Part shown: positions 18,585 to 64,000 of the stretch, in pieces
Position numbering within the stretch: position 1 is the first letter of the stretch
How the letters are laid out: the number at the start of each line of letters is the position of its first letter
NCBI GenBank assembly: GCA_902576785.1
Contig: CACGWC010000004.1
Coordinates: 16,340 to 80,339, forward strand
DNA from: an uncultured Pelagibacteraceae bacterium
Lineage (GTDB): Bacteria > Pseudomonadota > Alphaproteobacteria > Pelagibacterales > Pelagibacteraceae
DNA: 64,000 nucleotides
Direction: 5' to 3'
The notes under the pieces: model-generated
Seen by the model: only the letters and a program-made list of their open reading frames with translations
Databases searched by the model: none
Told to the model about the DNA's origin: nothing
Translations under genes and position numbers: made by a program

Positions 18585-20369
18585 TCAACTAACAAGAGAC
18601 TTTTGAGGTTTCATATCACTCTTGCTTATACCAGCTACTTTAACTGGTTTTTTCATAGCATCTCTTCTAAATGGCTCACCTAATTCTTGATTTAGAATTA
18701 TTTCGATAAATGTAGTAATGCCTTTTTTTTGATCTTCACATGATTGTTTTATAGCTTTAGTGGTTTCTTCCATTGTATTTGCAATAACACCTTTTAAACC
18801 ACATGCATTAGCAACTTTTGCATAACTTAATTCTGGATCTAACTCTGTTCCTACAAAATTGTCATCAAACCACAATATTGAATTTCTTTTTTCAGCACCC
18901 CATTGATAATTTCTAAAAATTACCATTGTTATTGCTGGCCACTCCTCTCTTGCACACGAACTCATTTCATTCATGCTTATTCCAAAAGCTCCATCACCAG
19001 CAAAACCTATAACTGGAGTATCTGGGCATCCAATTTTAGCTCCAAGAATAGACGGAAATCCATAACCACAAGGTCCAAATAAACCTGGTGCCAAATATTT
19101 TCTTGGTTTCTCAAACGTTGGGTAAGCGTTACCAATTGCACAATTATTTCCAATATCACTTGAAATTATAACATCTTCTGGCATCCCAGCTTGAATAGCT
19201 CTCCATGCTTGTCTTGGAGACATTCTATCTTTGTCTCTTTCTCTTGCTTCTTTATTCCAAACAGTTCCCGGATCATCATCCTCATGATCTAAACTTGTAA
19301 GAGTTTGCAACCATGCAGATTTTGTTTGATGAATTAGATTTTTTCTATCTTCTCTACCATTATCCCCAGCATTTGATGAAAGTTTTTCTAATATTTGTTG
19401 AGCTACCATTTTAGCATCACCACAAATACCAACTGTAACTTTCTTAGTTAAACCAATACGATCGGGGTTCATATCTACTTGAATAATTGTTGCATCCTTT
19501 GGCCAGTAATCAATTCCATATCCTGGCAATGTTGAAAATGGATTTAATCTTGTTCCTAACGCTAAAACTACATCAGCTTTTGAAATTAATTCCATTGCAG
19601 CTTTAGATCCGTTGTAACCTAATGGACCAACAGCTAATGGATGGCTTCCTGGAAAGCTATCGTTATGTTGATATCCATTACATACAGGTGCATCAAGCTT
19701 TTCTGCTAATTTTTTACAATCATCTATGGCATCACCTATAACAACTCCTGCTCCAGATAATATTACTGGGAATTTTGCTTCTGATAATAATTTCGCCGCT
19801 CTATCAACAGCATCTTTTCCACCACCTTGTCTTTCAAATCTTACAATTGGAGGTAATTCTATATCTATAACTTGTGTCCAAAAATCTCTTGGTACATTTA
19901 TTTGCGCAGGCGCTGAACCTCTAAATGCTTTTTCTATTACTCTGTTTAAAACTTCTGCCATTCTTGATGGGTCTCTAACTTCTTCTTGGTAACACACCAT
20001 GTCTTTAAATAAATTCATTTGCTCTACTTCTTGAAAACCACCTTGGCCCATAGTTTTGTTTGCAGCTTGAGGTGTAACTAATAATAGTGGAGTGTGATTC
20101 CAATAAGCAGTTTTTATTGGTGTAACAAGTCCTGTTATACCTGGACCATTTTGAGCAATCACCATTGACATTTTTCCAGTTGCTCTCGTGTAACCATCGG
20201 CAATCAATCCACCATTTGTTTCGTGAGCAACGTCCCAAAAAGTTATTCCAGCTTCTGGGAAAAGATCAGAAATAGGCATGAATGCAGAACCAATAATACC
20301 AAACGAATGTTCGATACCATGCATTTGTAAAACTTTTACAAAAGCTTCTTCGGTTGTCATTTTAGCCAT
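18585..20369 (-). CDS. xsc: Sulfoacetaldehyde acetyltransferase
   Basis: MTTEEAFVKVLQMHGI, GIIGSA, AQNGPG, SDIGNN, GDGAFG, QWGAEKRN, LGEPFRRDAM. Confidence 0.95.
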   Translation of the reverse strand: MAKMTTEEAFVKVLQMHGIEHSFGIIGSAFMPISDLFPEAGITFWDVAHETNGGLIADGYTRATGKMSMVIAQNGPGITGLVTPIKTAYWNHTPLLLVTPQAANKTMGQGGFQEVEQMNLFKDMVCYQEEVRDPSRMAEVLNRVIEKAFRGSAPAQINVPRDFWTQVIDIELPPIVRFERQGGGKDAVDRAAKLLSEAKFPVILSGAGVVIGDAIDDCKKLAEKLDAPVCNGYQHNDSFPGSHPLAVGPLGYNGSKAAMELISKADVVLALGTRLNPFSTLPGYGIDYWPKDATIIQVDMNPDRIGLTKKVTVGICGDAKMVAQQILEKLSSNAGDNGREDRKNLIHQTKSAWLQTLTSLDHEDDDPGTVWNKEARERDKDRMSPRQAWRAIQAGMPEDVIISSDIGNNCAIGNAYPTFEKPRKYLAPGLFGPCGYGFPSILGAKIGCPDTPVIGFAGDGAFGISMNEMSSCAREEWPAITMVIFRNYQWGAEKRNSILWFDDNFVGTELDPELSYAKVANACGLKGVIANTMEETTKAIKQSCEDQKKGITTFIEIILNQELGEPFRRDAMKKPVKVAGISKSDMKPQKSLVS

Positions 20370-20459
20370 ATCTAATCCTTCTTAATTCTATTTTTTAATT
20401 GTCAAAGTGCCCAATTCATATATAAATTGGATCGAATTTCAAACAAAGAAATCGTCACA

Positions 20460-20747
20460 ATGGCCGGCACAGATATTATAATCCACGATGAAAAAGACAA
20501 TGTAGGTGTTGTGGTTATTGAAAAAATTACTCCTAAACAAGACTGTGATTGCTGGATTATGGAAAATGATAAATCAGTAAAAATTCAATCGATGGATGAA
20601 ATACCTTTGGGTCATAAAATTGCTATGACCGATCTTAATGAGGGAGATACAATATTAAAGTACGGGCATGATATTGGCAAAGTCGTAAAATCAATTAAAA
20701 AAGGTGAGCATGTACATGTTCACAACGTAAAAACTAAAAAGTGGTAA
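20460..20747 (+). CDS. suyA: (R)-sulfolactate sulfo-lyase alpha subunit (SAF domain)
   Basis: [38 protein letters not shown]; ATG at 20460 preferred over the upstream TTG. Confidence 0.85.
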
Positions 20748-20748
20748 T

Positions 20749-21915
20749 ATGGAAATTCCAAAAACGTTTTTAGGATATAAAAGAGAAGATGGAAGAACAG
20801 GTACAAGAAATCACGTAATAATTTTACCTGTTGATGATATTTCAAATGCTTGTGCTGAAGCTGTAGCTAATAATATTAAAGGTACGATTGCCCTTCCGCA
20901 TTCTTATGGAAGACTACAATTTGGAGCAGACTTAGAGCTTCATTTTAGAACAATGATTGGAACAGGAAAAAATCCAAATGTTGCAGCAGTTATAGTAATT
21001 GGTATTGAGCCTAAATGGACAAAAAGAATTGTTGATGCAATTGCAACGACTGGAAAACCAGTTGAAGGTTTTAGTATAGAAGGTGTAGGAGATATAGACA
21101 CTATCGCAAGAGTTTCAAAGAAAGCTCAAGAATTTTCAATTTGGGCATCAGAGAAACAAAGAGAAGAACGTCCCATAAGCGACTTATGGATATCTGTTAA
21201 ATGTGGAGAGTCTGATACAACATCAGGATTAGCATCAAATCCTACAGTTGGAAATTTAATGGATAAATTAGAGCCCTTAGGTGTTCATTTGTGTTTTGGT
21301 GAAACATCTGAATTAACGGGTGCTGAAACTGTTTGTGAAAAAAGAGGAAAAACTCCTGAGGCTCAAGAAAAGTTTAGAAAAACGTGGAGTTCTTATAATG
21401 ATTTCATCTTAAAAGAAGCAACAGACGATCTTTCTGAAAGTCAACCAACAGCAGGAAACATAGCTGGTGGGCTTACCACAATTGAAGAAAAAGCATTTGG
21501 AAACTTTCAAAAAATTGGGGGATGTAAATTTATTGACGTACTAGAACCAGCAGAGGAACCAACTAAAGGTCCAGGCTTATACTTTATGGATACCTCATCA
21601 GCTGCTGCTGAATGTGTTACTTTACAAGCTGCAGGAGGATTTAATCTTCACCTATTTCCAACTGGGCAAGGAAATATAATTGGAAACCCAATTGAACCAG
21701 TAGTAAAACTAACTGCTAATCCTTTGACTGCTAGAACTATGAGTGAGCATATTGATGTTGATGTTTCTAAAATTTTATCAAGAGAAATGAATCTAGACGA
21801 AGCTGGTGATGAATTAATTAAAGCAACGATAAGAGTTGCAAACGGAAGATTAACTTGTGCTGAAGCACTAGGTCATAAAGAATTTGTTATGACTAAATTA
21901 TACAGAAGTGCTTAA
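20749..21915 (+). CDS. suyB: (R)-sulfolactate sulfo-lyase beta subunit (UxaA family)
   Basis: [56 protein letters not shown]; sulfonate context. Confidence 0.88.
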
Positions 21916-22997
21916 GCTTTAAGCTTAGCTTCTCTTGCTTTATTCCACTTAGAAATATAATTTCTTAAAACTGCAGCTCCAATTCCAAGAACTACTGCTA
22001 ATACAACTGATGTAAGTCCATAAAAAACTGGAAGGTCTTTAGAATAGTCTAAAATAAACTGTGCAATGTTTCCAAGGTTTTTAGTTCCATTTGCAACTGT
22101 TTCAACGATTACATCTTCTTTAATAAAAGTGTCATAAGCAATTGCAATTCCAACTAATAATAAAAGTACTGCTAAGATTGTTTTAAATTCTGAGCTATCA
22201 ACTTTTTCACCAATTTTTTGACCAAACTGGACACCAACAATTGAGCCAAGTATAAGTACAAAAACTAAAACAAGATCAATTGTTCCATAATTAAAAGCAT
22301 GAAGAACAGTTACGATTGCACTTACAAATATTGTAACAAACAAAGATGTTCCAGGAATTAGTTTGGTTGGCATTCCAATAATATAAATCATTGCAGGAAC
22401 CAATATAAATGCACCACCTACTCCCATAATTGCAGCGATATATCCTACAATTAAACCGATAATAATTGGAGTAAATGCGCTTTCATAAACCTTTGATTTT
22501 TTAAAACGCATTCGAAAAGGTAGTCCATGTATCCAATAATGAGTATGTAATTTTTTTCTAACAACAATTTTTTTTCTAGCCTTATCAATTTCAGATACTC
22601 CTTGAATAAGCATTAAAGTTCCAAGTATAGCTAAGATATACATGTAGGCTAAAGAGATAACGATGTTTATTTTTCCAATATCCTGAAAATAAGAAAAAGT
22701 TAGGATCCCTAGTAAGGTTCCAATGGTTCCTCCAACCACTATCATCAATCCCATTTTATAATCTAATGTTCCTTTTAAGTAATGGGTGGTTGAACCAGAT
22801 ACAGAAGTACCTAAAATATTGCTTGCTTCATTTGGCACTGCATAAGCTGGTGGAATACCTAAAAAAATTAAAAATGGTGTCATTAAAAATCCCCCACCTA
22901 CACCAAACAATCCTGAAAGAATACCAACTGCTAAACTTAAACCGAATATAAAGAGTATGTTAATTTCTACTTGAGCTATTGGAAGAAAATATTCCAT
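21912..22997 (-). CDS. Sulfite exporter TauE/SafE family
   Basis: [30 protein letters not shown]. Confidence 0.88.
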
Positions 22998-23048
22998 ATA
23001 ATCTAACTATTCCTCTCATAATCTAAAGTCAATGATTATAAGAATAAA

Positions 23049-23195
23049 TTAAATAAAATTTTGAAATGTTCCTAGGATTATAATTGCCCAAGTAAAAAAT
23101 ATAAAAAGATATAGAAAAGATTTAATTATTTTTGAAAGCTGATTTGAAACTAATAAAGGGATTTTCTTAATATTTTGATTAAAAGCTTGAAGCAT
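23049..23195 (-). CDS. Possible small single-TM protein (48 aa)
   Basis: Hand translation MLQAFNQNIKKIPLLVSNQLSKIIKSFLYLFIFFTWAIIILGTFQNFI. Confidence 0.35.
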   Translation of the reverse strand: MLQAFNQNIKKIPLLVSNQLSKIIKSFLYLFIFFTWAIIILGTFQNFI

Positions 23196-23246
23196 ACCCG
23201 CGAAATACCACAAGTTTTATTAAATGCAAATAATATTTAATTAAAT

Positions 23247-23597
23247 TTAAAAAATAGTTGCCCCGAAGACTTTGACCTCATCTCCCTCTTCTCCAAGGAC
23301 AAGTCGACCTAAAAAGTCTCCTGGTATCTCTGTACTGTTTTGTTTATAGATAACAGTTACGTACAAGCCTCTTCTTAGACAGCCTATAGCCTTACACCCC
23401 TCTTTAAGGCTTGAGATTAACTTATTGCTTGCCCATTGCTTGCCTAGCTCTACTTCGTTGGCCCCGTAAAGCATTTGTGATGATAAATCCCTGGTAAAAC
23501 CACCATAATCTTTCATGTTGGAACATCTAACCATGTTATCCCAGATAGGATCAGCAATTTTAATGATTTCTTCGTCTGATTTGTCGACAATACTCAT
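23247..23597 (-). CDS. Hypothetical protein directly downstream of aprA
   Basis: 116-aa ORF starting 9 bp after the aprA stop. Confidence 0.7.
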   Translation of the reverse strand: MSIVDKSDEEIIKIADPIWDNMVRCSNMKDYGGFTRDLSSQMLYGANEVELGKQWASNKLISSLKEGCKAIGCLRRGLYVTVIYKQNSTEIPGDFLGRLVLGEEGDEVKVFGATIF

Positions 23598-23606
23598 CTA
23601 AAATGG

Positions 23607-25466
23607 TTAGGAAGCTTGCTTCTTCTCTTTATCATCAACGATATGATAAACAGGCTTTTTCTCCATTTCAAATTTTCCAGTTTCAGGATCTCTTCTAGAA
23701 ACAGTTAAACAATGCCAGTTTTCATCATCAAGTTTCATATGATCACCTCTATAATAATAGCCTGGCCAACGCGTTTCTTCTCTAAATAAAGTATGATGAG
23801 CAACACATTCTGATGTTACAGCTCTATGCTTAAGTTCCCATGCTCTCATCAATTGGTGATAATCTTCAGCTCCTACATGATCTAAGTCTTCTTGAAGTAA
23901 TTGTAGCTGTTCTAAGCCTTTTTTAAGTAGATTATCATTTGTCATGTAATTATTTGTTAATCCACCACAATATTCATCCATAATTTTTTGTAGTCTTTGT
24001 AGTCCTTGTATAGGTAAAATATAGCTTGGAGAAACAGTTCCTCCAGTAATTTCATTTCTGCCAACTGTATAATTTTCAATTGGCTTAAATATTTCTTCTT
24101 TAAGCTTCTCTAATTGTGCATCAGAAACTTCGATATCATCAGCTTTTTTATCTTGAATATATTTAACAGCAGCTTTAGACGCTAACCTTCCTTCTGTGAA
24201 TGAACCAGATGAAAACTTATGAGCACTTCCACCAACTGCATCTCCTGCTCCAAATAATCCATCGATAGTCATCATTCTATTGTATCCCCAGAAATATTCA
24301 TCAGGCGCTATATCTTCTGGTCCACTGACCCATGCTCCTGAACATGTAGCATGAGATCCCATTACATATGGTTCTGAAGTTGTTAATTCAGGATTTGTGT
24401 ATTTTGGATCAATATTTTGAGATGCCCAAACTACCGCTTGTCCAACCGTCATTCCTAAGAAATTTTCCCATCCAACTGTTTCTAAGTGTGGGTCTTGGAA
24501 TGCTTCTTTTGTAACCATGTGAATTGGTCCACCACCTGCAGCTGTTTCTTGAATAAATGCGTGATTTCTTAAACAAGTTGGTGTTGGATGATGGTCTATA
24601 TATTCTCCTACTAATTCTTTAGTAGCTTCATACCATTTCTTTTCATAGTTCTCACCATTAGCATTTTGAGTATATGTTTTTAAATGAAGGAAATATGCTC
24701 CAACTGGACCATAACCATCCTTAAATCTACAAAGTACAATTCTATTTTCCATTTGAGTCATTTTTGCACCTGCTTGAATAGGTAATGCATAAGCAGATCC
24801 ATTACTCCAAGGTGCATACCATGTTCTACCCATACCTTCACCAACTGCTCTTGGTTTAAATATGTGCGATGCTCCTCCAGCAGAAACAACTACTGTTCTA
24901 GATTTAAATACGTGAAAATTTCCAGTTCTTACATTAAAGCCAACTGCACCAGCTATTCGATTTGGATTTTTTTCATCTTTTAAAAGATGAGTAATCATTA
25001 TTCTGTTATAAATTTTATCTGCAGATTTTTTTGCAGCTTCAGCTACAATTGGTTTGTAACTTTCGCCGTGTATCATTATTTGCCACTTACCTTCTCTTTG
25101 ATATCTTCCAGTTTCTTTGTTTTTCATCATTGGAAGACCCCATTCATCAAACATGTGAACAGTTGAGTCTACATGACGTGCCATGTCATAACCTAAATCT
25201 TCTCTAACAAGACCCATCAAGTCATTTCTAGCGTACCGTACATGGTCCTCTGGCATGTTCTCGCCCCACTGCATTCCCATATAACAGTTAATAGCGTAAA
25301 GACCTTGTGCAACGGCACCACTTCTATCTATATTTGCTTTTTCAACACAGATTATTTTTAAATCTCTTCCCCAGTGTCTTGCTTCAAAGGTAGCCCCTGT
25401 TCCAGCCATACCTCCACCGACAACTAGTACGTCACATTCTTCTATGATAGTTTTGTGCTTAGCCAT
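23607..25466 (-). CDS. aprA: Adenylylsulfate reductase alpha subunit
   Basis: GGGMAGTG, RSGAVAQGL.AIN, GKWQIMIHGESYK, RFKDGYGPVGA, HKFSSGS, EETRWPGYY. Confidence 0.97.
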   Translation of the reverse strand: MAKHKTIIEECDVLVVGGGMAGTGATFEARHWGRDLKIICVEKANIDRSGAVAQGLYAINCYMGMQWGENMPEDHVRYARNDLMGLVREDLGYDMARHVDSTVHMFDEWGLPMMKNKETGRYQREGKWQIMIHGESYKPIVAEAAKKSADKIYNRIMITHLLKDEKNPNRIAGAVGFNVRTGNFHVFKSRTVVVSAGGASHIFKPRAVGEGMGRTWYAPWSNGSAYALPIQAGAKMTQMENRIVLCRFKDGYGPVGAYFLHLKTYTQNANGENYEKKWYEATKELVGEYIDHHPTPTCLRNHAFIQETAAGGGPIHMVTKEAFQDPHLETVGWENFLGMTVGQAVVWASQNIDPKYTNPELTTSEPYVMGSHATCSGAWVSGPEDIAPDEYFWGYNRMMTIDGLFGAGDAVGGSAHKFSSGSFTEGRLASKAAVKYIQDKKADDIEVSDAQLEKLKEEIFKPIENYTVGRNEITGGTVSPSYILPIQGLQRLQKIMDEYCGGLTNNYMTNDNLLKKGLEQLQLLQEDLDHVGAEDYHQLMRAWELKHRAVTSECVAHHTLFREETRWPGYYYRGDHMKLDDENWHCLTVSRRDPETGKFEMEKKPVYHIVDDKEKKQAS

Positions 25467-25936
25467 TAATAATAAACGCCTTGCTTAAATGAATTCTTAT
25501 CTAAAGTTGGTAAATCTTTTTCAGTATTTAAACCATGTGGCTCATTATATAAAATTTGAGAATTAATCTCTCCTTGATTGGGAGTATCAGCTTCAGCTAA
25601 TTTTGGTATGAATTTTCCCCAAGGTTTTGTTGTTATTGGTGATACAAAATTCTTCTCTGTACCATTTCTAAATTTAATTCTCCAAGAGATGGTTCCTTTC
25701 TCTTCTTCTCTTCTTACTCTAACACTATGACCCATTGGGGCAAAGTCAGCATAGCCTCTTACATCAATTGCATGATTAGGACATGCCTTAACACATGAGT
25801 AGCATTCCCAGCAAAAATTTGGTTCTATATTTTTTGCTCTTCTAATAGTTTCGTCTATGTGCATGATATCTGATGGACATATATCTACACAATGACCACA
25901 ACCATCACATCTTGTCATGTATACAAAAGTTGACAT
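25466..25936 (-). CDS. aprB: Adenylylsulfate reductase beta subunit
   Basis: CDGCGHCVDICP and CWECYSCVKACP [4Fe-4S] motifs; RGYADF. Confidence 0.97.
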   Translation of the reverse strand: MSTFVYMTRCDGCGHCVDICPSDIMHIDETIRRAKNIEPNFCWECYSCVKACPNHAIDVRGYADFAPMGHSVRVRREEEKGTISWRIKFRNGTEKNFVSPITTKPWGKFIPKLAEADTPNQGEINSQILYNEPHGLNTEKDLPTLDKNSFKQGVYY

Positions 25937-25975
25937 ATCTACTTATTACCTTTCTTTAAAATTTTATCAATCATA

Positions 25976-26770
25976 TTAATAGTGCTTTGGTGCCTCACGT
26001 TTAATTCCAAGTCCAAATTGTTCTGGAGCGTCTGCAGGTGGAGGTAAATTATCTCTAGATCCATCTGCTTCTGCTAAATTTTTTTGGATTGCAGCACCTG
26101 GTTTGTAGAACATATGTGCAAATTTAGACCAGTAAACTCCTCCAAATAAAACTATGTTAGCAACCGCAAACAAAATTAAAAATAAAATACTTAAACCAGT
26201 AGATCCTGAATATTGGAAATAAGACCAAGCTAAACCAAACGTAGAAGATAATACTAAAGCTAAAACAAATAAATCTGCTTTTATGATTCTAAAAACTGAG
26301 TGAGCTTCAGCAGATACATCTACTCTTAAAAAAAACCAAAACCAATATGCTCCAAGGCAAGTTAAAATTGCACCAGCATGCCAAATGATTGGCCATATAG
26401 ATGGGGTTACAGCATTAGGAGAAGAATATCCAAATATCATAACACCTGACCCGATCCAAAATAATATCGTTCCATACATTCCTAATACATGCGCAAATCT
26501 TCTTTTGCCCAAACCTAATTCAGATGTAGTTCCAATATCATGTACTACTGTTTTAGAAATTATTGCTGTTTTCTCTCCAAGACTTAATTCTCTACTTGCT
26601 GCTTTTTTTGCTTTTTTAGCATTATTAAAAAAATATTTTACATTCTTCTTATGAATAATATCCATCAGTGTTCCAATCACTACCAATGCTAACATCAACA
26701 AAACAAATGCTTGCAAAGCAATTGAAGGAACTGTTGAGGAAAGGACAGCAAATGGATTTGTTGTGAACAT
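25976..26770 (-). CDS. aprM: APS reductase membrane anchor
   Basis: Multi-TM, D..HKK..KYFF, RR.AHVL.MYG, WSKFAHMFYKP; directly upstream of aprB. Confidence 0.9.
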   Translation of the reverse strand: MFTTNPFAVLSSTVPSIALQAFVLLMLALVVIGTLMDIIHKKNVKYFFNNAKKAKKAASRELSLGEKTAIISKTVVHDIGTTSELGLGKRRFAHVLGMYGTILFWIGSGVMIFGYSSPNAVTPSIWPIIWHAGAILTCLGAYWFWFFLRVDVSAEAHSVFRIIKADLFVLALVLSSTFGLAWSYFQYSGSTGLSILFLILFAVANIVLFGGVYWSKFAHMFYKPGAAIQKNLAEADGSRDNLPPPADAPEQFGLGIKREAPKHY

Positions 26771-56688: not shown

Positions 56689-57600
56689 ATGTTATCTGAT
56701 AAATCTACAGTTTGCCCTGTTAATCTACTAAATATAGCCCATCAAAAAAGAGGTGTAAAAGCAGCCATTGTAAATGCAGGTAAAAAATTACCGATGATGT
56801 CAGTAATGGACGCTGTTTCAGAAAAACTGATCACCCCAATATTAATAGGTGACAAACAAAAAATACAAGAATGCGCAGATGAGCTTAAATTTGACATATC
56901 AAATTTTGAAATAATTAATGAGCCAGTTGAAAATAATACAGCAGGAATTGCAACAAAACTTGCATCAGAAGATAAAGTAAAAATTATTGTAAAAGGACAT
57001 ATCCATACTGATATATTAATGAAAGAAGTTCTTAAGAGAGAGTATAAATTAATCGGAAAAACAAGACTAAGTCATATTTGGCATATGACATTACAAAAAG
57101 ATGATAAACCATTAATAATAACCGACGGAGCATTGAATGTTTCTCCTAACCTAAAAACTAAAATGCATATTTTAAGAAATGTTATAGATTTTAGCCATAG
57201 AATTAATATTCCAAGACCAAAGATTTCTATCCTTTCAGCAACAGAAGAAGTAATTGATAGTGTACAGAGTTCTGTTGAAGCTAAAGAATTAACTGAATTG
57301 GCAAGTAAAGAAAATTTTAATGCTGATATTTTTGGACCCTTAGCATTTGACAATAGCATTTCAAAAAAATCTGCTTCTATTAAGGGAATTGAGAATATAG
57401 TTGCTGGGGAAGCTGATGTATTATTAGTTCCAAATGTCGAAACTGGAAATGCGCTTGTAAAAATGATGATTTATTTTATGGGAGCATGTGCAGCTGGCGT
57501 AGTTGTTGGAGGTAAAGTGCCTGTTGTTATAACAAGTAGGTCAGATGATGCGACAGCAAGACTTGCTTCTATAGCTGCAGCTGTTGTTTCTTTAGATTAA
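56689..57600 (+). CDS. pta: Phosphate acetyl/butyryltransferase
   Basis: KG.IHT, R.SH, TDGALN, LSATE, GPLAFDN, P.VETGN.L.K, P.VITSRSD. Confidence 0.85.
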   Translation: MLSDKSTVCPVNLLNIAHQKRGVKAAIVNAGKKLPMMSVMDAVSEKLITPILIGDKQKIQECADELKFDISNFEIINEPVENNTAGIATKLASEDKVKIIVKGHIHTDILMKEVLKREYKLIGKTRLSHIWHMTLQKDDKPLIITDGALNVSPNLKTKMHILRNVIDFSHRINIPRPKISILSATEEVIDSVQSSVEAKELTELASKENFNADIFGPLAFDNSISKKSASIKGIENIVAGEADVLLVPNVETGNALVKMMIYFMGACAAGVVVGGKVPVVITSRSDDATARLASIAAAVVSLD

Positions 57601-57659: not shown

Positions 57660-58946
57660 ATGGCAATTACTTATATAAAAAAAGCTGAAAAAACTGCATT
57701 TACAGGAGAAGATGAAACAAGAACTAAGGTAAGTTCTATTTTAAAAGATTTAGAAAAAACTAAAGATCAAGGTGTTAAAGATATTTTAAAAAAATTTGAT
57801 AATTATGAAGGTGATATAATTGTTAGCAAAGAAAAAATTGAGGAAATAAATAAAACTTTAGATCAGAAGATTAAAGATGATATTCAGTTCTCTCATGAAA
57901 GAGTAAGGAAGTTTGCAGAACATCAGCTTGAAAATCTTGGAAAAGACTCAGAAGTTGAATTATCGCCAGGTTTAATAGCAGGGCAAAAATTAATACCTGT
58001 AAATACCGTTGGGTGTTACGTGCCCGGTGGAAGATATAACAATATCGCCTCTGCTATAATGAGTGTGACAACTGCAAAAGTTGCTGGAGTAAAAAATGTA
58101 ATTGCAACAAGTCCGCCGAAAGATTCAAATGGTGCTAACCCAATTATAATTTATACAGCTAACCTTTGTGGTGCAGATGTAATTATGAACATTGGCGGTA
58201 TAGGAGCAATTGGTGCGCTTGCATATGGTTGCTTTGGTAATCCAGAAGTAGATATGATTGTTGGACCTGGAAATAAATTTGTAGCAGAGTCTAAAAGGAT
58301 TTTATTTGGAAAAGTTGGAATTGATTTATTTGCAGGACCAACCGAAATAGGCATTATTGCAGATCATACAGCTGACAAAGAAATAATCGCTTATGATTTA
58401 GTTGGACAGGCTGAACATGGTCCTGACTCTCCAGCTTGGCTTTATACTACTGATAAATCTTTATGTGATTATGTTATGAAAAGAGTTCCAGAAATTATTC
58501 AAGAACTACCTGAACATAACAGAAATAATGCTGATGCAGCATGGAGAGATTATGGAGAAGTAATTATGTGTGATACCAAAGAAGAAATGATGAAAGTGAG
58601 TGATGAATATGCACCTGAACATTTAGAGGTTCAAGCTGAAAACTTAGACTGGTATTTAAAAAATTTAAAAAATTATGGTTCTTTATTTTTAGGTGAAGAA
58701 ACAACAGTTGCATATGGAGATAAATGCTCTGGACCAAATCATATTCTACCAACAAAAGGTGCAGGAAAATATACTGGAGGCTTATACGTTGGAAAATTTA
58801 TAAAAACAGTTACTTACCAAAAGATGAATAAAGAATCTAACAAAGAAGTTGGTGCTGCAGCAGCTAGAATTTCTAGATACGAAGGTATGGAAGCTCATGC
58901 TAGAACTGGTGATGTAAGACTTCGAAAATATGGTTTTTCAAATTAG
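57660..58946 (+). CDS. hpsN: Sulfopropanediol (DHPS) 3-dehydrogenase, HisD paralogue
   Basis: HisD fold with HpsN-type features YIKKAEKT, CYVPGGRY, DLVGQAEHG..SPAWL, AAWRDYGEV, YGSLFLGEETTVAYGDK.SGPNH; no his genes nearby; sulfonate context. Confidence 0.82.
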   Translation: MAITYIKKAEKTAFTGEDETRTKVSSILKDLEKTKDQGVKDILKKFDNYEGDIIVSKEKIEEINKTLDQKIKDDIQFSHERVRKFAEHQLENLGKDSEVELSPGLIAGQKLIPVNTVGCYVPGGRYNNIASAIMSVTTAKVAGVKNVIATSPPKDSNGANPIIIYTANLCGADVIMNIGGIGAIGALAYGCFGNPEVDMIVGPGNKFVAESKRILFGKVGIDLFAGPTEIGIIADHTADKEIIAYDLVGQAEHGPDSPAWLYTTDKSLCDYVMKRVPEIIQELPEHNRNNADAAWRDYGEVIMCDTKEEMMKVSDEYAPEHLEVQAENLDWYLKNLKNYGSLFLGEETTVAYGDKCSGPNHILPTKGAGKYTGGLYVGKFIKTVTYQKMNKESNKEVGAAAARISRYEGMEAHARTGDVRLRKYGFSN

Positions 58947-58959
58947 AGAACTTTAGTTT

Positions 58960-60036
58960 TCAAGATTTAAAAATATCAATTCCGATCTGACTTAATATAT
59001 GCGCTAGATCTATCGGTACCCAATTTTCTCTGATTTTTCCCTCATCATGATGATAAAAATCCATAACTCTCATAGTTACTTTATTTTTATTTGAATTATA
59101 TCCTAGCCAATCATTTGAATCATACACTGCTTGTATACTGTGCCATCCAGCAGTAAGTGAAAATTTACCATCTCCTAATTCACAATAATGTCCTAATTCC
59201 CAGTAATTTCTTTCTTTAAATGTTTTTCTAAAAGGAAGTTGATGATGATCAATGAAACCTTCCAAAGAGCGTGCTGTTCCTATACCGCTAGGTCCATACC
59301 AAATCATTTTTTCATGCCAAAAATCTTTTTGTGGGTGATTAAGAAGTTTTTCTTTTAAATCAGAGTCAGATGATGCTTCTAATTCTGGTTTAATATTTAA
59401 ACTTCTTTGCATAGTAAGAGATTGATCTAGAGTGGCTTTTGAAACATCTAAATTGTTTTCGTAAAAATTTACACCATCTGTATTTATTGGTGTCATCCAA
59501 ATGCCCTCATACCCTCTTGAAGGATTTATTGGAAACTTCCCTACTTGATTTAGAAAATTTATTGTGTCGATTAAAATGTGACTTTCAATAATTTTATCGT
59601 TTTTTAATTCGTGTATCTCACAGCATCTTAAATTTACCATTTTAAAATTTGGCTCTACATTTAGCCATTTCTTTTTAAAAATTCCTGATAAGGTAGATAT
59701 TGTTCCAACTTGAAATTTATCTCTAAAGGCTCCGCCTATAACGAGTTGTTCTCTTCTCTCTAAATCAGGAAACGCATCAAAAAGTGGGGTCCAAAATTTA
59801 TCCCTAAAATTAGACAAACCTTTAAATTCATTTAATGGAAAAAAACATTTAATGTTTACATCTTCGCTAAAATATTTGCTTAAATTTTCTTCTATTTTAG
59901 ATGGTCCAAGCTTGTAAATATTGTTCAAATAATTTCTAACTATTTGTTTATTTTGTTTATTTTCTTCAGCTGTGATTTTTAATTCTTGAAAATTATTTTG
60001 ATTTTTAAGTCCTGTATCAAATTGTTCTATTTGCAT
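58960..60036 (-). CDS. Tandem SnoaL-like (ester cyclase/NTF2 fold) protein
   Basis: AFPDLERR, M.WYGP.GIG, F..HHQ.PF, MRVMDF, I.ENWV.ID; start placed at MQIEQ. Confidence 0.75.
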   Translation of the reverse strand: MQIEQFDTGLKNQNNFQELKITAEENKQNKQIVRNYLNNIYKLGPSKIEENLSKYFSEDVNIKCFFPLNEFKGLSNFRDKFWTPLFDAFPDLERREQLVIGGAFRDKFQVGTISTLSGIFKKKWLNVEPNFKMVNLRCCEIHELKNDKIIESHILIDTINFLNQVGKFPINPSRGYEGIWMTPINTDGVNFYENNLDVSKATLDQSLTMQRSLNIKPELEASSDSDLKEKLLNHPQKDFWHEKMIWYGPSGIGTARSLEGFIDHHQLPFRKTFKERNYWELGHYCELGDGKFSLTAGWHSIQAVYDSNDWLGYNSNKNKVTMRVMDFYHHDEGKIRENWVPIDLAHILSQIGIDIFKS

Positions 60037-60077
60037 AAATTGCAATTTATATTTAAATAGAGATAAATAACAAGAAT

Positions 60078-61016
60078 ATGATTGATAGATTAGCAAAATT
60101 TAATGAGCTCGTTCCGAGTAGCCTTCCTTTTGTAGAGGGTAGATTAGAAGGTCATAAAGAAAGAAAAAATTATACAATTATTGGACGTGGAGTTGCTGAA
60201 GATACCAAACAACTAATAAAAATACAGTCTTTACATGGGTATAATTTAGGAGCAGTGAGTGCTATGCCAAAAAATGGATCTGGTCTTCATAGTCATACTA
60301 CGGCTGAAGTATTTGTAATTTACTCAGGTAAATGGAGATTTTATTGGGGTGCTGATGGAAAACAAGAAACAATATTAGAAGCTGGCGATATAATTTCAAT
60401 GCCTACAAATATGTTCAGAGCATTTGAAAATGTTGGAGATAAAGAAAGTTTAATGTTCGTTGTATTAGGCGGAGATGATCCTGGTATAATAACATGGGTA
60501 CCAGAAATTTTAAAAAAAGCAAAAGAGACTGGTATGGCATTGCTTGATGATAATTCGTTAATAGATTTAAAAAAGGTTGAAGTACCTAACGGTAGAAAGA
60601 TGATAGAGCCTATCACTCAAGATGAATTAGAAAGATTTGATAATTATTTGCCAGAAGAATTAGAAAAAAATATTTATAGAAATAAACAAAAGAATGTCAG
60701 TGATGAAGTTAATGGTATTAAATTATATCAAGTATTAGGAAACAAATTTAATATAAAAACTTATGAACCTTCAATCAAACAAGATACTGGATTTAATTTA
60801 ACAACTTTAAATTCTATATCTGGTGAAATTAAAGATATTGAATGTATAAAGCCTACCGTTCTTTTTGCTCAAGAGGGTAATTGGAAAATAGTAATAGGAA
60901 ACTCAAATATAAAATTAGAAAAAGGAGATACTTTTTCAGTTCCTTTGAGTAGCAAAATAGATATCTCTTGTAATAATTCAGAAAATAGTATTTTAAATTT
61001 TGTTAGTCAGATCTAA
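60078..61016 (+). CDS. Cupin domain protein, bicupin-like
   Basis: HSH.TAEVF....G.WRF.WG, GD.IS.PT..FR.FEN. Confidence 0.8.
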   Translation: MIDRLAKFNELVPSSLPFVEGRLEGHKERKNYTIIGRGVAEDTKQLIKIQSLHGYNLGAVSAMPKNGSGLHSHTTAEVFVIYSGKWRFYWGADGKQETILEAGDIISMPTNMFRAFENVGDKESLMFVVLGGDDPGIITWVPEILKKAKETGMALLDDNSLIDLKKVEVPNGRKMIEPITQDELERFDNYLPEELEKNIYRNKQKNVSDEVNGIKLYQVLGNKFNIKTYEPSIKQDTGFNLTTLNSISGEIKDIECIKPTVLFAQEGNWKIVIGNSNIKLEKGDTFSVPLSSKIDISCNNSENSILNFVSQI

Positions 61017-61975
61017 TGAAAGGATTTGATAGTAATTATAAAAATTTAACTGATTACATTTTAAAAATTACTAAACAAATTTGGGAAGGGAAAGATGTCG
61101 AGTCAATATCCAAATATTATTCAGAGAATATCCCTGTAAGATCACCTTTTGGAGTAACCTATGGTTTTAAACCTGTTATTGATGCAACCTATAAAACTTT
61201 AGACGAATTTCCTGACAGACAATTATTAGGTGAAGATGTAATTTGGAGTGGAAATGATGATGAAGGATATCATTCATCTCACAGAATTCTTAGCAAAGCT
61301 ACACATTTAAATGACGGGTATTACGGAAAAAAAACAGGAAACAAAATTGTTTATAGAGTTATAGCCGACTGTGCATGTAAAAATAATCAGGTTTATGATG
61401 AGTGGATTGTGAGAGATCAAGGTGCAATGGTTCGACAGCTGGGTTATACACCTGAGCAATTTGCAAGGCATTTAATTGATAAAGAAGGTGGGGTATCTAA
61501 AGCTATCAAAGTTTTTAATAGATCTTCTGATAAAAAGTCAGATTATACTCCAGTTAAAGTTAATGAAGTTTCATCAGGTTATATATATTCCAATATTTTA
61601 AAGAAAATATTTAATAATAATTATGATTTTGAAGATTATGATAGAGCAGCCAGTCTATTTTGGCCAAGTAATAAAGTTGGAAATGGCAGTGAAGATATAA
61701 TTAAATATTGGAGCTCTTTAAAAAATATATTTTCTGAAATAAAGTTTACAATCGAACATGTTGCATCATTAGATGAAAAAAATAACAATCAAAAAGCTAC
61801 AATCAGATGGTTTTTAAGTGGTAAGCACTCTAAAGACAGTGAAGAATTCGGGAAAAAGACTGACAAAGATTTATTTATAATGGGTATAAATCATGCAGAA
61901 TTAAGAGATGATAAAATAATAAGAGAATGGGTATTGTTTGATGAAGTGGCTATTTGGAAACAAATATTAATGTAA
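61016..61975 (+). CDS. Tandem SnoaL-like (ester cyclase) protein
   Basis: DYI..IT..IWE, FPDR.LLGEDVIW, SSHRI, R.IADC, EW.VRD, EWVLFDE. Confidence 0.78.
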   Translation: MKGFDSNYKNLTDYILKITKQIWEGKDVESISKYYSENIPVRSPFGVTYGFKPVIDATYKTLDEFPDRQLLGEDVIWSGNDDEGYHSSHRILSKATHLNDGYYGKKTGNKIVYRVIADCACKNNQVYDEWIVRDQGAMVRQLGYTPEQFARHLIDKEGGVSKAIKVFNRSSDKKSDYTPVKVNEVSSGYIYSNILKKIFNNNYDFEDYDRAASLFWPSNKVGNGSEDIIKYWSSLKNIFSEIKFTIEHVASLDEKNNNQKATIRWFLSGKHSKDSEEFGKKTDKDLFIMGINHAELRDDKIIREWVLFDEVAIWKQILM

Positions 61976-61980
61976 AAACT

Positions 61981-63108
61981 ATGGATAAAATTAAAACCAC
62001 ACATGTTGGAAGTCTGCCAAGATCAAAAAAGCTATCTGAGATACTATTTAAAAAAGATAAAAATGAATTATTTGATCAAGGAGAGCTTGATAAGATAATT
62101 GAAGAAGATGTAAACAAAATTGTAAAAAAACAAATTAATATCGGAATTGACATTGTAAGTGATGGTGAAATGTCAAAAATCAGTTATGCTACTTATGTCA
62201 AGGATCGATTACATGGATTTAGTGGTGAAAGCGAGAGAAGAGCTCCTAAAGACTTAGATGATTTTCCATCATATAAAGAAAAAATTGCAAAATCAGGAGG
62301 CACACCTACTTATACAAGACCATGTTGTACTGCTGATTTAAAAATTAAAGATACTAAATCTTTAACTAAAGATATCAGTAATTTAAAATCTGCATTAAAA
62401 AAAAATAACCATTCTCAAGGATTTATAAACTCTGCATCACCAGGAGTAATTTCAAATTTCCTTCCAAACAAATTCTATAAGAATGACGATGATTATTTAG
62501 AAGCATTATCAAAAATGATGAAAACTGAATATGATGAAATAACAAAGAATGATTTATTTTTACAAATTGATTGCCCAGATCTAGCGCTAGCAAGACATAT
62601 GACTTTTAAAAATGTATCAGATGAAGAATTTTTAGTAAGAGCTGAAAAACAAATCGAATGTCTTAATGAAGCAATCAAAGATATCGATGCCTCTAAGTTG
62701 AGAATGCATATCTGCTGGGGAAATTATGAAGGACCTCATATTCACGATATTGGATTAGAAAAAATATTACCTATTGCTTTAAAAGCAAATATCCAAACTT
62801 ATTTAATTGAAGCCTCGAACCCAAGACATGCTCATGAATGGCAGGTTTTTGAGAATATTAGACTTCCTAATGATAAAGTAATAGCTCCTGGTGTAATAGA
62901 CTCAACCTCAAACTTCATAGAGCATGAAGAGTTAGTAAAAAATAGAATAATTCAGTATTCAAAAGTAATTGATAAAGATCAATTGATGGCTGGAAGTGAT
63001 TGTGGATTTAGTACTTTTGCAGGCTTTGGAAATGTTGATGAAAATATTGTTTACAAGAAATTTGAATCTTTGGTCGCAGGTGCAGAGCTTGCGTCAAATG
63101 CGATTTAA
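61981..63108 (+). CDS. Single-barrel MetE-like Zn thiol-alkyltransferase (methionine synthase II / epoxyalkane:CoM transferase family)
   Basis: TTHVGSLPR, DGE, QIDCPD, Zn ligands HICWGN, E and DCGF, PGVID; no N-terminal folate-binding barrel. Confidence 0.85.
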   Translation: MDKIKTTHVGSLPRSKKLSEILFKKDKNELFDQGELDKIIEEDVNKIVKKQINIGIDIVSDGEMSKISYATYVKDRLHGFSGESERRAPKDLDDFPSYKEKIAKSGGTPTYTRPCCTADLKIKDTKSLTKDISNLKSALKKNNHSQGFINSASPGVISNFLPNKFYKNDDDYLEALSKMMKTEYDEITKNDLFLQIDCPDLALARHMTFKNVSDEEFLVRAEKQIECLNEAIKDIDASKLRMHICWGNYEGPHIHDIGLEKILPIALKANIQTYLIEASNPRHAHEWQVFENIRLPNDKVIAPGVIDSTSNFIEHEELVKNRIIQYSKVIDKDQLMAGSDCGFSTFAGFGNVDENIVYKKFESLVAGAELASNAI

Positions 63109-63181
63109 AAACTACTTTTAAATTCCCTAAGGAATATATATCCTTTCATCCATAAATTTAAATTTAATGAGGGAAACAAAT

Positions 63182-64000
63182 ATGAAAAAAATATTAATAT
63201 CATTATTGTTTCTTCTTTTTGGAACTTCTGCTTACGCAGATTGTAACATTAAGAGTGGATCAATAAATATTTTAGCTAATGATTTTCCAGCTTTAAGAAC
63301 TTTCGTGGAAACAGCTAAAGGATGTAAAGGAAGTGCGGATTTTAAAGTCACACACTCATCTGAGCACAATAAAATTGCTGTGCCAGCTCTAACTGCAAAT
63401 CCATCAGAGTTTTCTGCAAGAATTGCAGCAAATAGCTCTATAGTTCCTTTAATGAACCAAGATTTAATTAGACCACTTGATGATCTTGTTAAGAAATATG
63501 GAAAAGGAATACAAGACTCTCAATTGATAACAATTGATGGAAAAATAATGGCAGTTGCTTTTATGGCAAACACTCAGCACTTATATTACAGAGAAGATGT
63601 TTTAAAAGAATTGGGTATCGCTGTTCCTAAAACATATGAGGAAGTAGTAGCGGCATCAGAAAAAATAAGAGCATCTGGTAAAATGCAATATCCTTACGCA
63701 GCAGCATACAAAGCTGGTTGGAATTTAGCAGAAGAATTCGTTAACATGTACATTGGACATGGAGGAGAATTCTTTAAAGCAGGAACTGCTCAACCAAGCA
63801 TTAACAATGCAAAAGGTGTAGCAACATTAAATATGCTAAAAAAATTAGCAGGTTTAAGTAACCCAGATTATTTAACTCACGATAGTGAAGCTATTAAAGT
63901 TGAATGGGAATCTGGAAATGTTGCATTAATGACTCTTTGGGCATCAAGATCAGGAACATTGCTTGATGATGATGGTGATGCAAAAATTACAGCTGCAACT
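63182..64000 (+). CDS. ABC transporter substrate-binding protein (family 1, carbohydrate-type), truncated by the window end
   Basis: RBS gaggga; MKKILISLLFLLFGTSAYAD..., LIRPLDDLV, IDGKIMAVAFMANTQHLYYREDVL..LGI.VPKTYEEV. Confidence 0.88.
   Translation, partial: MKKILISLLFLLFGTSAYADCNIKSGSINILANDFPALRTFVETAKGCKGSADFKVTHSSEHNKIAVPALTANPSEFSARIAANSSIVPLMNQDLIRPLDDLVKKYGKGIQDSQLITIDGKIMAVAFMANTQHLYYREDVLKELGIAVPKTYEEVVAASEKIRASGKMQYPYAAAYKAGWNLAEEFVNMYIGHGGEFFKAGTAQPSINNAKGVATLNMLKKLAGLSNPDYLTHDSEAIKVEWESGNVALMTLWASRSGTLLDDDGDAKITAAT

Follow-up and report, generated by a model that had tools for sequence, protein, structure and literature searches.

We analysed a 64,000-nucleotide stretch of DNA (the window; G000:C4:16340-80339) from an uncultured Pelagibacteraceae bacterium. 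Its genome, G000, is 86% complete, and close relatives are named Pelagibacteraceae, SAR11. At the end of the window lies a gene cassette that encodes two tandem SnoaL/NTF2 proteins (SnoaL1 and SnoaL2), a cupin, a MetE-like Zn enzyme, and the solute-binding protein (SBP) of an ABC importer (Table 1). This is a real, widespread, undescribed catabolic cassette. Its best-supported candidate role is to strip mycosporine-like amino acids (MAAs), whereas an organosulfur reading of it is weak. An earlier reading made from the letters alone, here the sequence-only reading, had placed five genes at this site, and gene calls and domain matches confirmed all five. The module extent needed correction, in that genes for two permeases and a HAD hydrolase extend the cassette past the window.

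Table 1. Genes of the cassette and its neighbours (window positions unless marked C4)
Feature	Position	Strand	Protein length	Basis or remark
SnoaL1, tandem SnoaL/NTF2	58960-60036	minus	358 aa	PF07366 x2
Bicupin	60078-61016	plus	312 aa	Cupin domain call and predicted structure
SnoaL2, tandem SnoaL/NTF2	61016-61975	plus	319 aa	Two SnoaL domains
Single-barrel MetE-like Zn enzyme	61981-63108	plus	375 aa	PF01717 only
Carbohydrate-type (family-1) ABC SBP	63182-64000, cut by window end	plus	406 aa in full	PF01547
Two permeases	G000:C4:80787-81815 and 81816-82697			Beyond window
HAD hydrolase	about C4:82694-83356			Beyond window
lysE		opposite strand		After HAD hydrolase; the cassette's end marker in G000
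Phosphate acetyl/butyryltransferase (pta)	56689-57600	plus		Neighbour outside cassette
HpsN-clade dehydrogenase (hpsN)	57660-58946	plus		Neighbour outside cassette

SnoaL1 is convergent with hpsN and divergent from the cupin gene across 41 bases. The cupin TAA overlaps the SnoaL2 ATG by one base (TAATG, 61014-61018), an overlap that the sequence-only reading had also seen. There is no ABC ATPase gene at the G000 locus, including the stretch past the window to lysE. MalK-like genes are present elsewhere in the genome, and an ATPase gene follows SnoaL1 in loci L055 and L067 (Walker A motif, by eye). Promoter and terminator scans gave results at chance level. Contigs from four RNA runs in four studies span parts of all five genes, which indicates presence in RNA libraries, not level.

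Conservation and accessory status of the cassette

A scan with SnoaL2 found 339 relatives, and the best 80, all from Pelagibacteraceae, were examined. The MetE-like gene comes after SnoaL2 in all 80 of these. The cupin gene precedes SnoaL2 in 76; of the other four loci, three lie at a contig edge and one is rearranged. SnoaL2 relatives were also found in 23 of 400 other alphaproteobacterial genomes. At phylum level, 24 of 400 genomes have one, and one alphaproteobacterial family (f94) contributes 16 of these from its 28 genomes. Plasmid records widen the SnoaL family to Vibrio, Pantoea, Priestia, Deinococcus, and Halobellus. Whether the genes co-occur elsewhere had been left to be seen; they do, and they are conserved beyond this genome. 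They form a conserved, real uptake-and-breakdown module.

The cassette is an accessory insertion that separates hpsN from lysE. Within the genus of the window, 74 of 76 genomes have hpsN versus 30 of 76 for the cassette's MetE-like gene, and the counts in the family are 116 and 30 of 199, respectively; the hpsN scan takes in one unpublished genome, G547. Among 20 genomes without the cassette, hpsN ends within about 15 bases of lysE in five, and lysE is within about 2 kb in four more. The pta gene precedes hpsN in cassette-less genomes, too. The sequence-only reading was right that the module adjoins hpsN and pta, yet both genes lie outside the cassette, and the tie between the cassette and hpsN is probably incidental. 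The gap between hpsN and SnoaL1 is also an insertion hot spot (L017:5324-7894; L055:1639-7919; L062:7560-7925). Found there are genes for a large permease and a ProX-like SBP of the betaine type, for another sugar ABC system together with a glucosylglycerate-hydrolase-like protein, or for a rhodanese-like protein.

Outside Pelagibacter, we tallied 82 loci that were picked for tandem SnoaL genes; some genomes contribute several loci, and the stretches are mostly ≤20 kb. Regulators of the LacI type occur in 64 loci, the cupin in 50, a HisD paralogue in 45, a short-chain dehydrogenase/reductase (SDR) in 40, an esterase-like hydrolase in 37, the SBP in 35, and the MetE-like enzyme in 30. SnoaL paralogues number one to five per locus. 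No locus combines an RraA-type aldolase (21 loci) with an HpcH-type one (14 loci), which suggests that one aldol step is done by two folds. The SDR is KduD-like, or polyol-type, and the best solved relatives of the hydrolase are esterases. A PDB search with the SBP found no close solved relative (best E 1e-9).

Several loci showed further arrangements. A plasmid of the haloarchaeon Halobellus limi (L243:12911-19304) carries five SnoaL genes in a row, then a MetE-like gene. In genome G209 (L111:9229-12807), the module is flanked by cysN-, cysD-, and cysQ-like genes of sulfate activation (translations, by eye). Marinovum algicola DG 898 has the full cluster (MALG_05008-05022), and HTCC8051 is one of the Pelagibacter strains with the cassette. 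Cassettes of SnoaL plus ABC genes adjoin sarcosine-oxidase-like operons in Vibrio pelagius (L146:1-5707) and G761 (L213), and these could act on methylamine- or glycine-bearing substrates.

Predicted activities of the encoded proteins

The two tandem-SnoaL proteins are indeed different, as had been claimed, with about 24% identity over 132 residues. The predicted structure of SnoaL2 is a tandem SnoaL (pLDDT 94.8). SnoaL2 is the module's most widely conserved orthologue, and its 22-row clade has a tree support of 100. SnoaL1 falls in the same large clade as a Vibrio SnoaL linked to serine dehydratase (see below), in another subclade, in a FastTree tree that carries a long-branch warning. A PDB sequence search with SnoaL1 gave 0 matches, and an Atlas search with a homologue gave uncharacterised SnoaL clusters only. 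Like the module proteins, Lsd19 and MonBI-MonBII (tandem NTF2/SnoaL) have two SnoaL-fold domains in one chain. However, these proteins, together with single-domain SnoaL, AknH, and SnoaL2/AclR, have ≤22% identity to the module SnoaLs, and the domain arrangement of Lsd19 is unlike that of a module SnoaL (rmsd 17-19). The Lsd19/MonB/SnoaL/AknH group acts in polyketide biosynthesis, whereas the module SnoaLs sit with importers and catabolic genes. We infer that both module proteins are C-N hydrolases, with SnoaL1 predicted to act on imine or enamine bonds.

SnoaL1 exists as two alleles with about 64% amino acid and 71% nucleotide identity, in genomes that are otherwise 95-98% identical here. The other allele is present in 22 of 45 close genomes, and the switch is limited to the gene, with flanks of 93-100% identity. 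The two alleles may differ in substrate preference. A gene-specific sweep of the cassette was considered and rejected, because the flanking genes are equally similar (95-99%) among 51 close genomes.

The MetE-like protein consists of a single barrel with intact Zn ligands and no folate barrel, as the sequence-only reading had stated. It matches PF01717 only, and across 10 non-redundant homologues the residues H243, C245, E277, and C341 do not vary. Residues E63 and D197 align with the homocysteine-binding Glu73 and Asp188 of MesD (3RPD; relevant passages of PMC7857596). S11, in an H-V-G-S motif, is invariant, and its Ser22 counterpart falls outside the printed 3RPD alignment. The protein shares with the core methionine synthases MesA-MesD, of which MesD is closest, one barrel without a folate domain, the His/Cys/Glu/Cys Zn site, and the homocysteine-binding Glu and Asp. 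However, the match to MesD is weak (E 6.6e-6, 28.5 bits) and far below the threshold of ~55% identity given for MesD in that part of the source, no mesX adjoins, and the gene lies in an accessory catabolic cassette. MesX (PF08908) had no match in G000 and none in 14 control genomes either. Genes for alkene monooxygenase or coenzyme M synthesis, to which an epoxyalkane:coenzyme M transferase would be linked, did not appear among the recurrent neighbours or in the annotated plasmid regions examined. The sequence features point to a substrate:homocysteine methyltransferase with, unlike MesD, a predicted small-molecule methyl donor, which the cassette would supply. The earlier idea of a feed into methionine synthesis is plausible, given the kept homocysteine-binding residues.

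The cupin is predicted to fold as a bicupin (model confidence 90.4). The metal motif noticed earlier is there, as an N-terminal H71/H73/E77 site, with one correction: at the position where cupins usually have a third His, 22 aligned sequences have an invariant Arg114. In 3-His-1-Glu cupins, the second-motif His serves as a metal ligand. Quercetin 2,3-dioxygenase, oxalate decarboxylase, and DddK have the H-x-H-x3-E first motif and the bicupin fold in common with the cassette cupin (Z about 20) but differ from it at this His. The oxalate decarboxylase and quercetinase folds tie (12-17% identity), and the best PDB sequence match is DddK, a weak one (E 2e-4). Because no fold match stands out, the fold gives no function. 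We predict a ring-cleaving or isomerising enzyme.

Mycosporine-like amino acids as candidate substrates

On balance, we favour MAAs as the substrates of the cassette, imported and stripped of their amino acids and methyl group, and give this slightly more than an even chance. The "cyclic metabolite" that the sequence-only reading offered as an alternative fits this explanation. According to a review (PMC3083659, relevant passages), many algae, cyanobacteria, and fungi produce MAAs, which are also present in the dissolved pool of seawater. The same passages state that Dunlap and Shick "suggested" that Vibrio harveyi forms mycosporine-glycine from shinorine and porphyra-334 by hydrolytic removal of their Ser/Thr; no gene or enzyme is assigned in them. 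We predicted from the reported activity that V. harveyi would encode a module-type tandem SnoaL, and it does (P0247). This protein belongs to a 215-member cluster that includes V. alginolyticus and V. campbellii. On a V. europaeus plasmid, a 98% homologue lies in a minimal cassette of MFS transporter, SnoaL, porin, and LacI genes, divergent from genes for a symporter and an L-serine ammonia-lyase (serine dehydratase).

Matches to P0247 occur in 35 of 151 genomes of the family around G874, 22 of the places with >90% identity. We fetched 17 cassettes, 16 from the >90% places and one 69% copy, and found a serine dehydratase gene beside 11. The cassette-side dehydratase is a third, extra copy in all four genomes tested; G978, whose cassette has none, has two. 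The G978 cassette lies directly upstream of kbl-tdh (threonine catabolism). The minimal Vibrio cassette, in which a SnoaL is joined by a serine dehydratase, agrees with the Ser/Thr release reported for V. harveyi. The SAR11 SnoaLs are paralogues (30%) of the Vibrio protein, with an ABC importer, a cupin, and a MetE-like enzyme added.

Fungal mycosporines bear glutaminol or glutamicol, and mycosporine-glutaminol is an amide-bearing amino alcohol (PMC4665425, relevant passages). Five of the 82 loci contain amidases, and four of these five also have a second HisD-like enzyme; the four are in Pantoea and Priestia (leaf isolates), Novosphingobium, and Roseibium. The motif of this second enzyme, Q-A-E-H-D, resembles that of true HisD, which is an amino-alcohol dehydrogenase. 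A Deinococcus locus has two HisD-like genes and a carbon-nitrogen hydrolase gene. The amidase and second HisD-like enzyme fit mycosporine-glutaminol, and the number of SnoaL paralogues, from one to five at each locus, is in keeping with a group of compounds that share a core but differ in their amines. A TRAP transporter accompanies the lower pathway (HisD paralogue, SDR, cupin, hydrolase, and aldolase) on a Roseibium aggregatum plasmid (L152:11080-19669) and in L223. Such a pairing would be expected if an anionic core such as gadusol enters alone.

We propose the following scheme. The SBP and permeases would import an MAA, e.g., shinorine or porphyra-334, with an ATPase borrowed from elsewhere in the genome. 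The two tandem-SnoaL proteins would hydrolyse both ring C-N bonds, releasing Ser/Thr (or another C1 amine), Gly, and 4-deoxygadusol. The MetE-like enzyme would move the ring O-methyl onto homocysteine to give methionine, and the cupin would open the enolic ring. In the fuller version of other bacteria, the esterase-like hydrolase, SDR, HisD paralogue, and RraA- or HpcH-type aldolase would carry on to pyruvate and a C4 acid. On chemical grounds, 4-carboxy-4-hydroxy-2-oxoadipate would result if the deoxygadusol ring were cut next to the carbon that bears the methoxy group, the methyl ester hydrolysed, and the CH2OH oxidised. This compound is the substrate of RraA-type aldolases. The substrate of the HisD paralogue, oxidised at its CH2OH, would be a carboxylate analogue of 2,3-dihydroxypropane-1-sulfonate (DHPS), and such a ring-opened intermediate would explain the use of a sister enzyme of HpsN. 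Pelagibacter, which has to scavenge glycine, serine, and methyl groups, would retain mainly the part that yields them. Parts of PMC12478193 describe SAR11 as a glycine auxotroph without MetE and MetH. More tentatively, as a possibility somewhat short of probable, the tandem SnoaLs may be a new class of enaminone/vinylogous-amidine hydrolases, with each member adapted to one amine substituent, the MetE-like enzyme may be a new kind of methionine synthase that takes the O-methyl directly from deoxygadusol, SAR11 may gain Gly, Ser, and the methyl of Met, and the SnoaL1 alleles may partition MAAs. The gene family would then be the missing microbial mycosporine/MAA pathway.

Several points weigh against MAAs as the substrates. 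The window's SnoaL1 is just 30% identical to P0247 and belongs to another subclade. Six of the 17 P0247-type cassettes lack the dehydratase, the kbl-tdh case is single, and the genomes with Vibrio-type cassettes are kin and perhaps represent one or two events. The V. harveyi activity rests on one review sentence with the word "suggested" (PMC3083659, relevant passages), and G1108, which encodes an exact copy of P0247, carries the fuller pathway alongside, versus the reviewed stop at mycosporine-glycine. The fit to MAAs is partly post hoc. G000, at its completeness, has no match to RraA, the module esterase-like hydrolase, serine dehydratase, or a second HisD paralogue. Therefore, the fate of the cupin product in Pelagibacter is unexplained, and the scheme assigns no step to the HAD hydrolase. 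The likeness of the module RraA protein to the CHA aldolase is weak (E 0.0015, below the cut-off), three of seven loci with a second HisD-like gene have no amidase, and we found no precedent for O-methyl transfer by a MetE barrel.

Alternative explanations and the hpsN neighbour

Other conjugates of amino acids and polyols, such as Amadori or opine-like compounds, are unlikely substrates, although they too would account for the serine dehydratase, kbl-tdh, and amidase neighbours. Here the SnoaLs would free the amino acid, and the sugar part would pass to a 2-keto-3-deoxy acid aldolase. The carbohydrate-type SBP, KduD-like SDR, HpcH aldolase, and HAD hydrolase would all be explained. However, with such conjugates neither the MetE-like enzyme (30 of 82 loci) nor the esterase-like hydrolase (37 of 82) would have a role, and the V. 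harveyi report would be left unexplained. The known Amadori and opine pathways use oxidases, or a kinase together with a deglycase, rather than SnoaL proteins.

A methylated sugar, cyclitol, or cyclic-ether algal osmolyte, whose ring the SnoaLs would open or dehydrate and which the MetE-like enzyme would demethylate, is quite unlikely. The carbohydrate-type importer, the LacI regulators in 64 of 82 loci, the polyol-type SDR, and the aldolases agree with such a substrate. So do the top Foldseek rows for SnoaL2, which are tandem epoxide hydrolases (E 1.8e-10), but this match is at fold level only (8% identity, TM 0.32, rmsd 18.9). In addition, the dedicated serine dehydratase and the amidases would be unexplained.

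The sequence-only reading had proposed uptake and breakdown of an organosulfur compound, a sulfonate or sulfonium, that feeds the DHPS/sulfolactate route. We consider this very unlikely, and the link to that route was not supported. In its favour, the cassette adjoins pta, hpsN, and tauABC, with xsc, suyB, and aprBAM in the same window; the cluster lies beside dimethylsulfoniopropionate (DMSP) genes on one Marinovum plasmid; DddK is the cupin's best, if weak, sequence match (E 2e-4); and mycosporine-taurine exists and would join both views. Against it, pta-hpsN is present without the cassette in most genomes, and hpsN is near-universal. None of the 82 non-Pelagibacter loci contains suyB, hpsO, hpsP, comD, comE, or pta (xsc and cuyA were outside the query). 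A single locus contains hpsN, about 13 kb off in a separate taurine-ABC cluster.

The dehydrogenases themselves also argue against a sulfonate substrate for the module. The window's hpsN gene falls in the HpsN clade (SH-aLRT 99), with 55% identity to HpsN of Cupriavidus pinatubonensis, whereas the HisD paralogue of the module groups apart, in a separate clade (SH-aLRT 98), 43-49% identical to HpsN, in a quick tree whose careful search is unfinished. In HpsN, His126 binds the sulfonate within a G-R-Y-A/S-H motif (PMC11382572, relevant passages). The module HisD paralogue has G-K-F/Y-P-M/L, with Met at the sulfonate-binding His. The window's hpsN has G-R-Y-N-N, in which Asn replaces His126. This Asn occurs in 45 hpsN sequences of the window's own clade, the window's included, and His126 is kept in all 20 cassette-less genomes and in more distant cassette-bearing ones. 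Every genome of the family sample gave at most one match at E≤1e-90; the module HisD paralogue thus appears to be missing from Pelagibacter cassettes. The His126-to-Asn change may alter DHPS activity, or the variant may moonlight for the cassette's missing paralogue. A SAR11 HpsN is active on R-DHPS, and SAR11 hps genes are not clustered (PMC11131964, relevant passages).

HpsN-dependent DHPS catabolism (hpsRNOUP-suyAB in C. pinatubonensis; hpsKLMNOP in roseobacters; PMC11382572, PMC11131964) shares with the fuller modules a LacI regulator, an importer, a HisD-fold 4-electron dehydrogenase, and an SDR. However, the hps clusters hold no counterpart to the module SnoaL, cupin, MetE-like, and aldolase genes, and the module loci have a dehydrogenase of a separate clade with no hpsO, hpsP, suyB, or comDE alongside.

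Genes for an xsc-like enzyme, suyB, a TauE-like exporter, and aprBAM-like proteins lie at 18585-26770 of the window, about 32-40 kb upstream (suyB by tblastn, the others by translations). With these genes in place, the sulfonate route is complete without the cassette. In a separate cluster on a Paracoccus alcaliphilus plasmid (L149:14227-23125), genes for a D-cysteine desulfhydrase, a DegT aminotransferase, a racemase, and a sulfate exporter stand with tauABC and hpsN, an arrangement that resembles cysteinolic acid catabolism.

Finally, it is extremely improbable that the MetE-like protein is a housekeeping core methionine synthase with chance neighbours. It keeps the Zn ligands and homocysteine-binding residues and is the sole PF01717 gene in G000, but just 30 of the 199 genomes in the family have it, SnoaL2 precedes it at each of the 80 SAR11 loci examined, and G000 also has three homocysteine S-methyltransferase-family genes. 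A core-MetE homologue, perhaps of a different family, does not rescue the methionine auxotrophy of P. inhibens (PMC12478193, relevant passages). The protein is probably not such an enzyme, which bears on a doubt that the sequence-only reading had raised.

We found no description of the cluster in the literature searched, in agreement with the sequence-only reading, which knew of no pathway with this gene set; subscription papers and bioRxiv supplements lie outside the search and may hold one. Nor did that literature contain a gene or enzyme for bacterial MAA breakdown. The neighbours of R. pomeroyi SPO0981 are not module-like (PMC8027193, supplement 4 part 11), and nothing was found in the supplements of PMC9873259 (outside files 13-16) and PMC4069834. 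The novelty lies in the lack of a described pathway; every fold in the cassette is known.

Whatever the substrate, a HisD paralogue with 43-49% identity to HpsN means that loose counts of hpsN in the ocean may include a non-sulfonate enzyme. The one-enzyme Vibrio cassette and the UV-absorbing substrates make the MAA question testable with a plate reader. SAR11 is the ocean's most abundant bacterium, and MAAs are algal UV sunscreens. If MAAs are the substrates, the assignment would name a pathway in 30 of 76 Pelagibacter-genus genomes and in 16 of the 28 sampled from one alphaproteobacterial family. It would also add two new enzyme activities and give SAR11 an extra source of glycine/serine and methyl groups.

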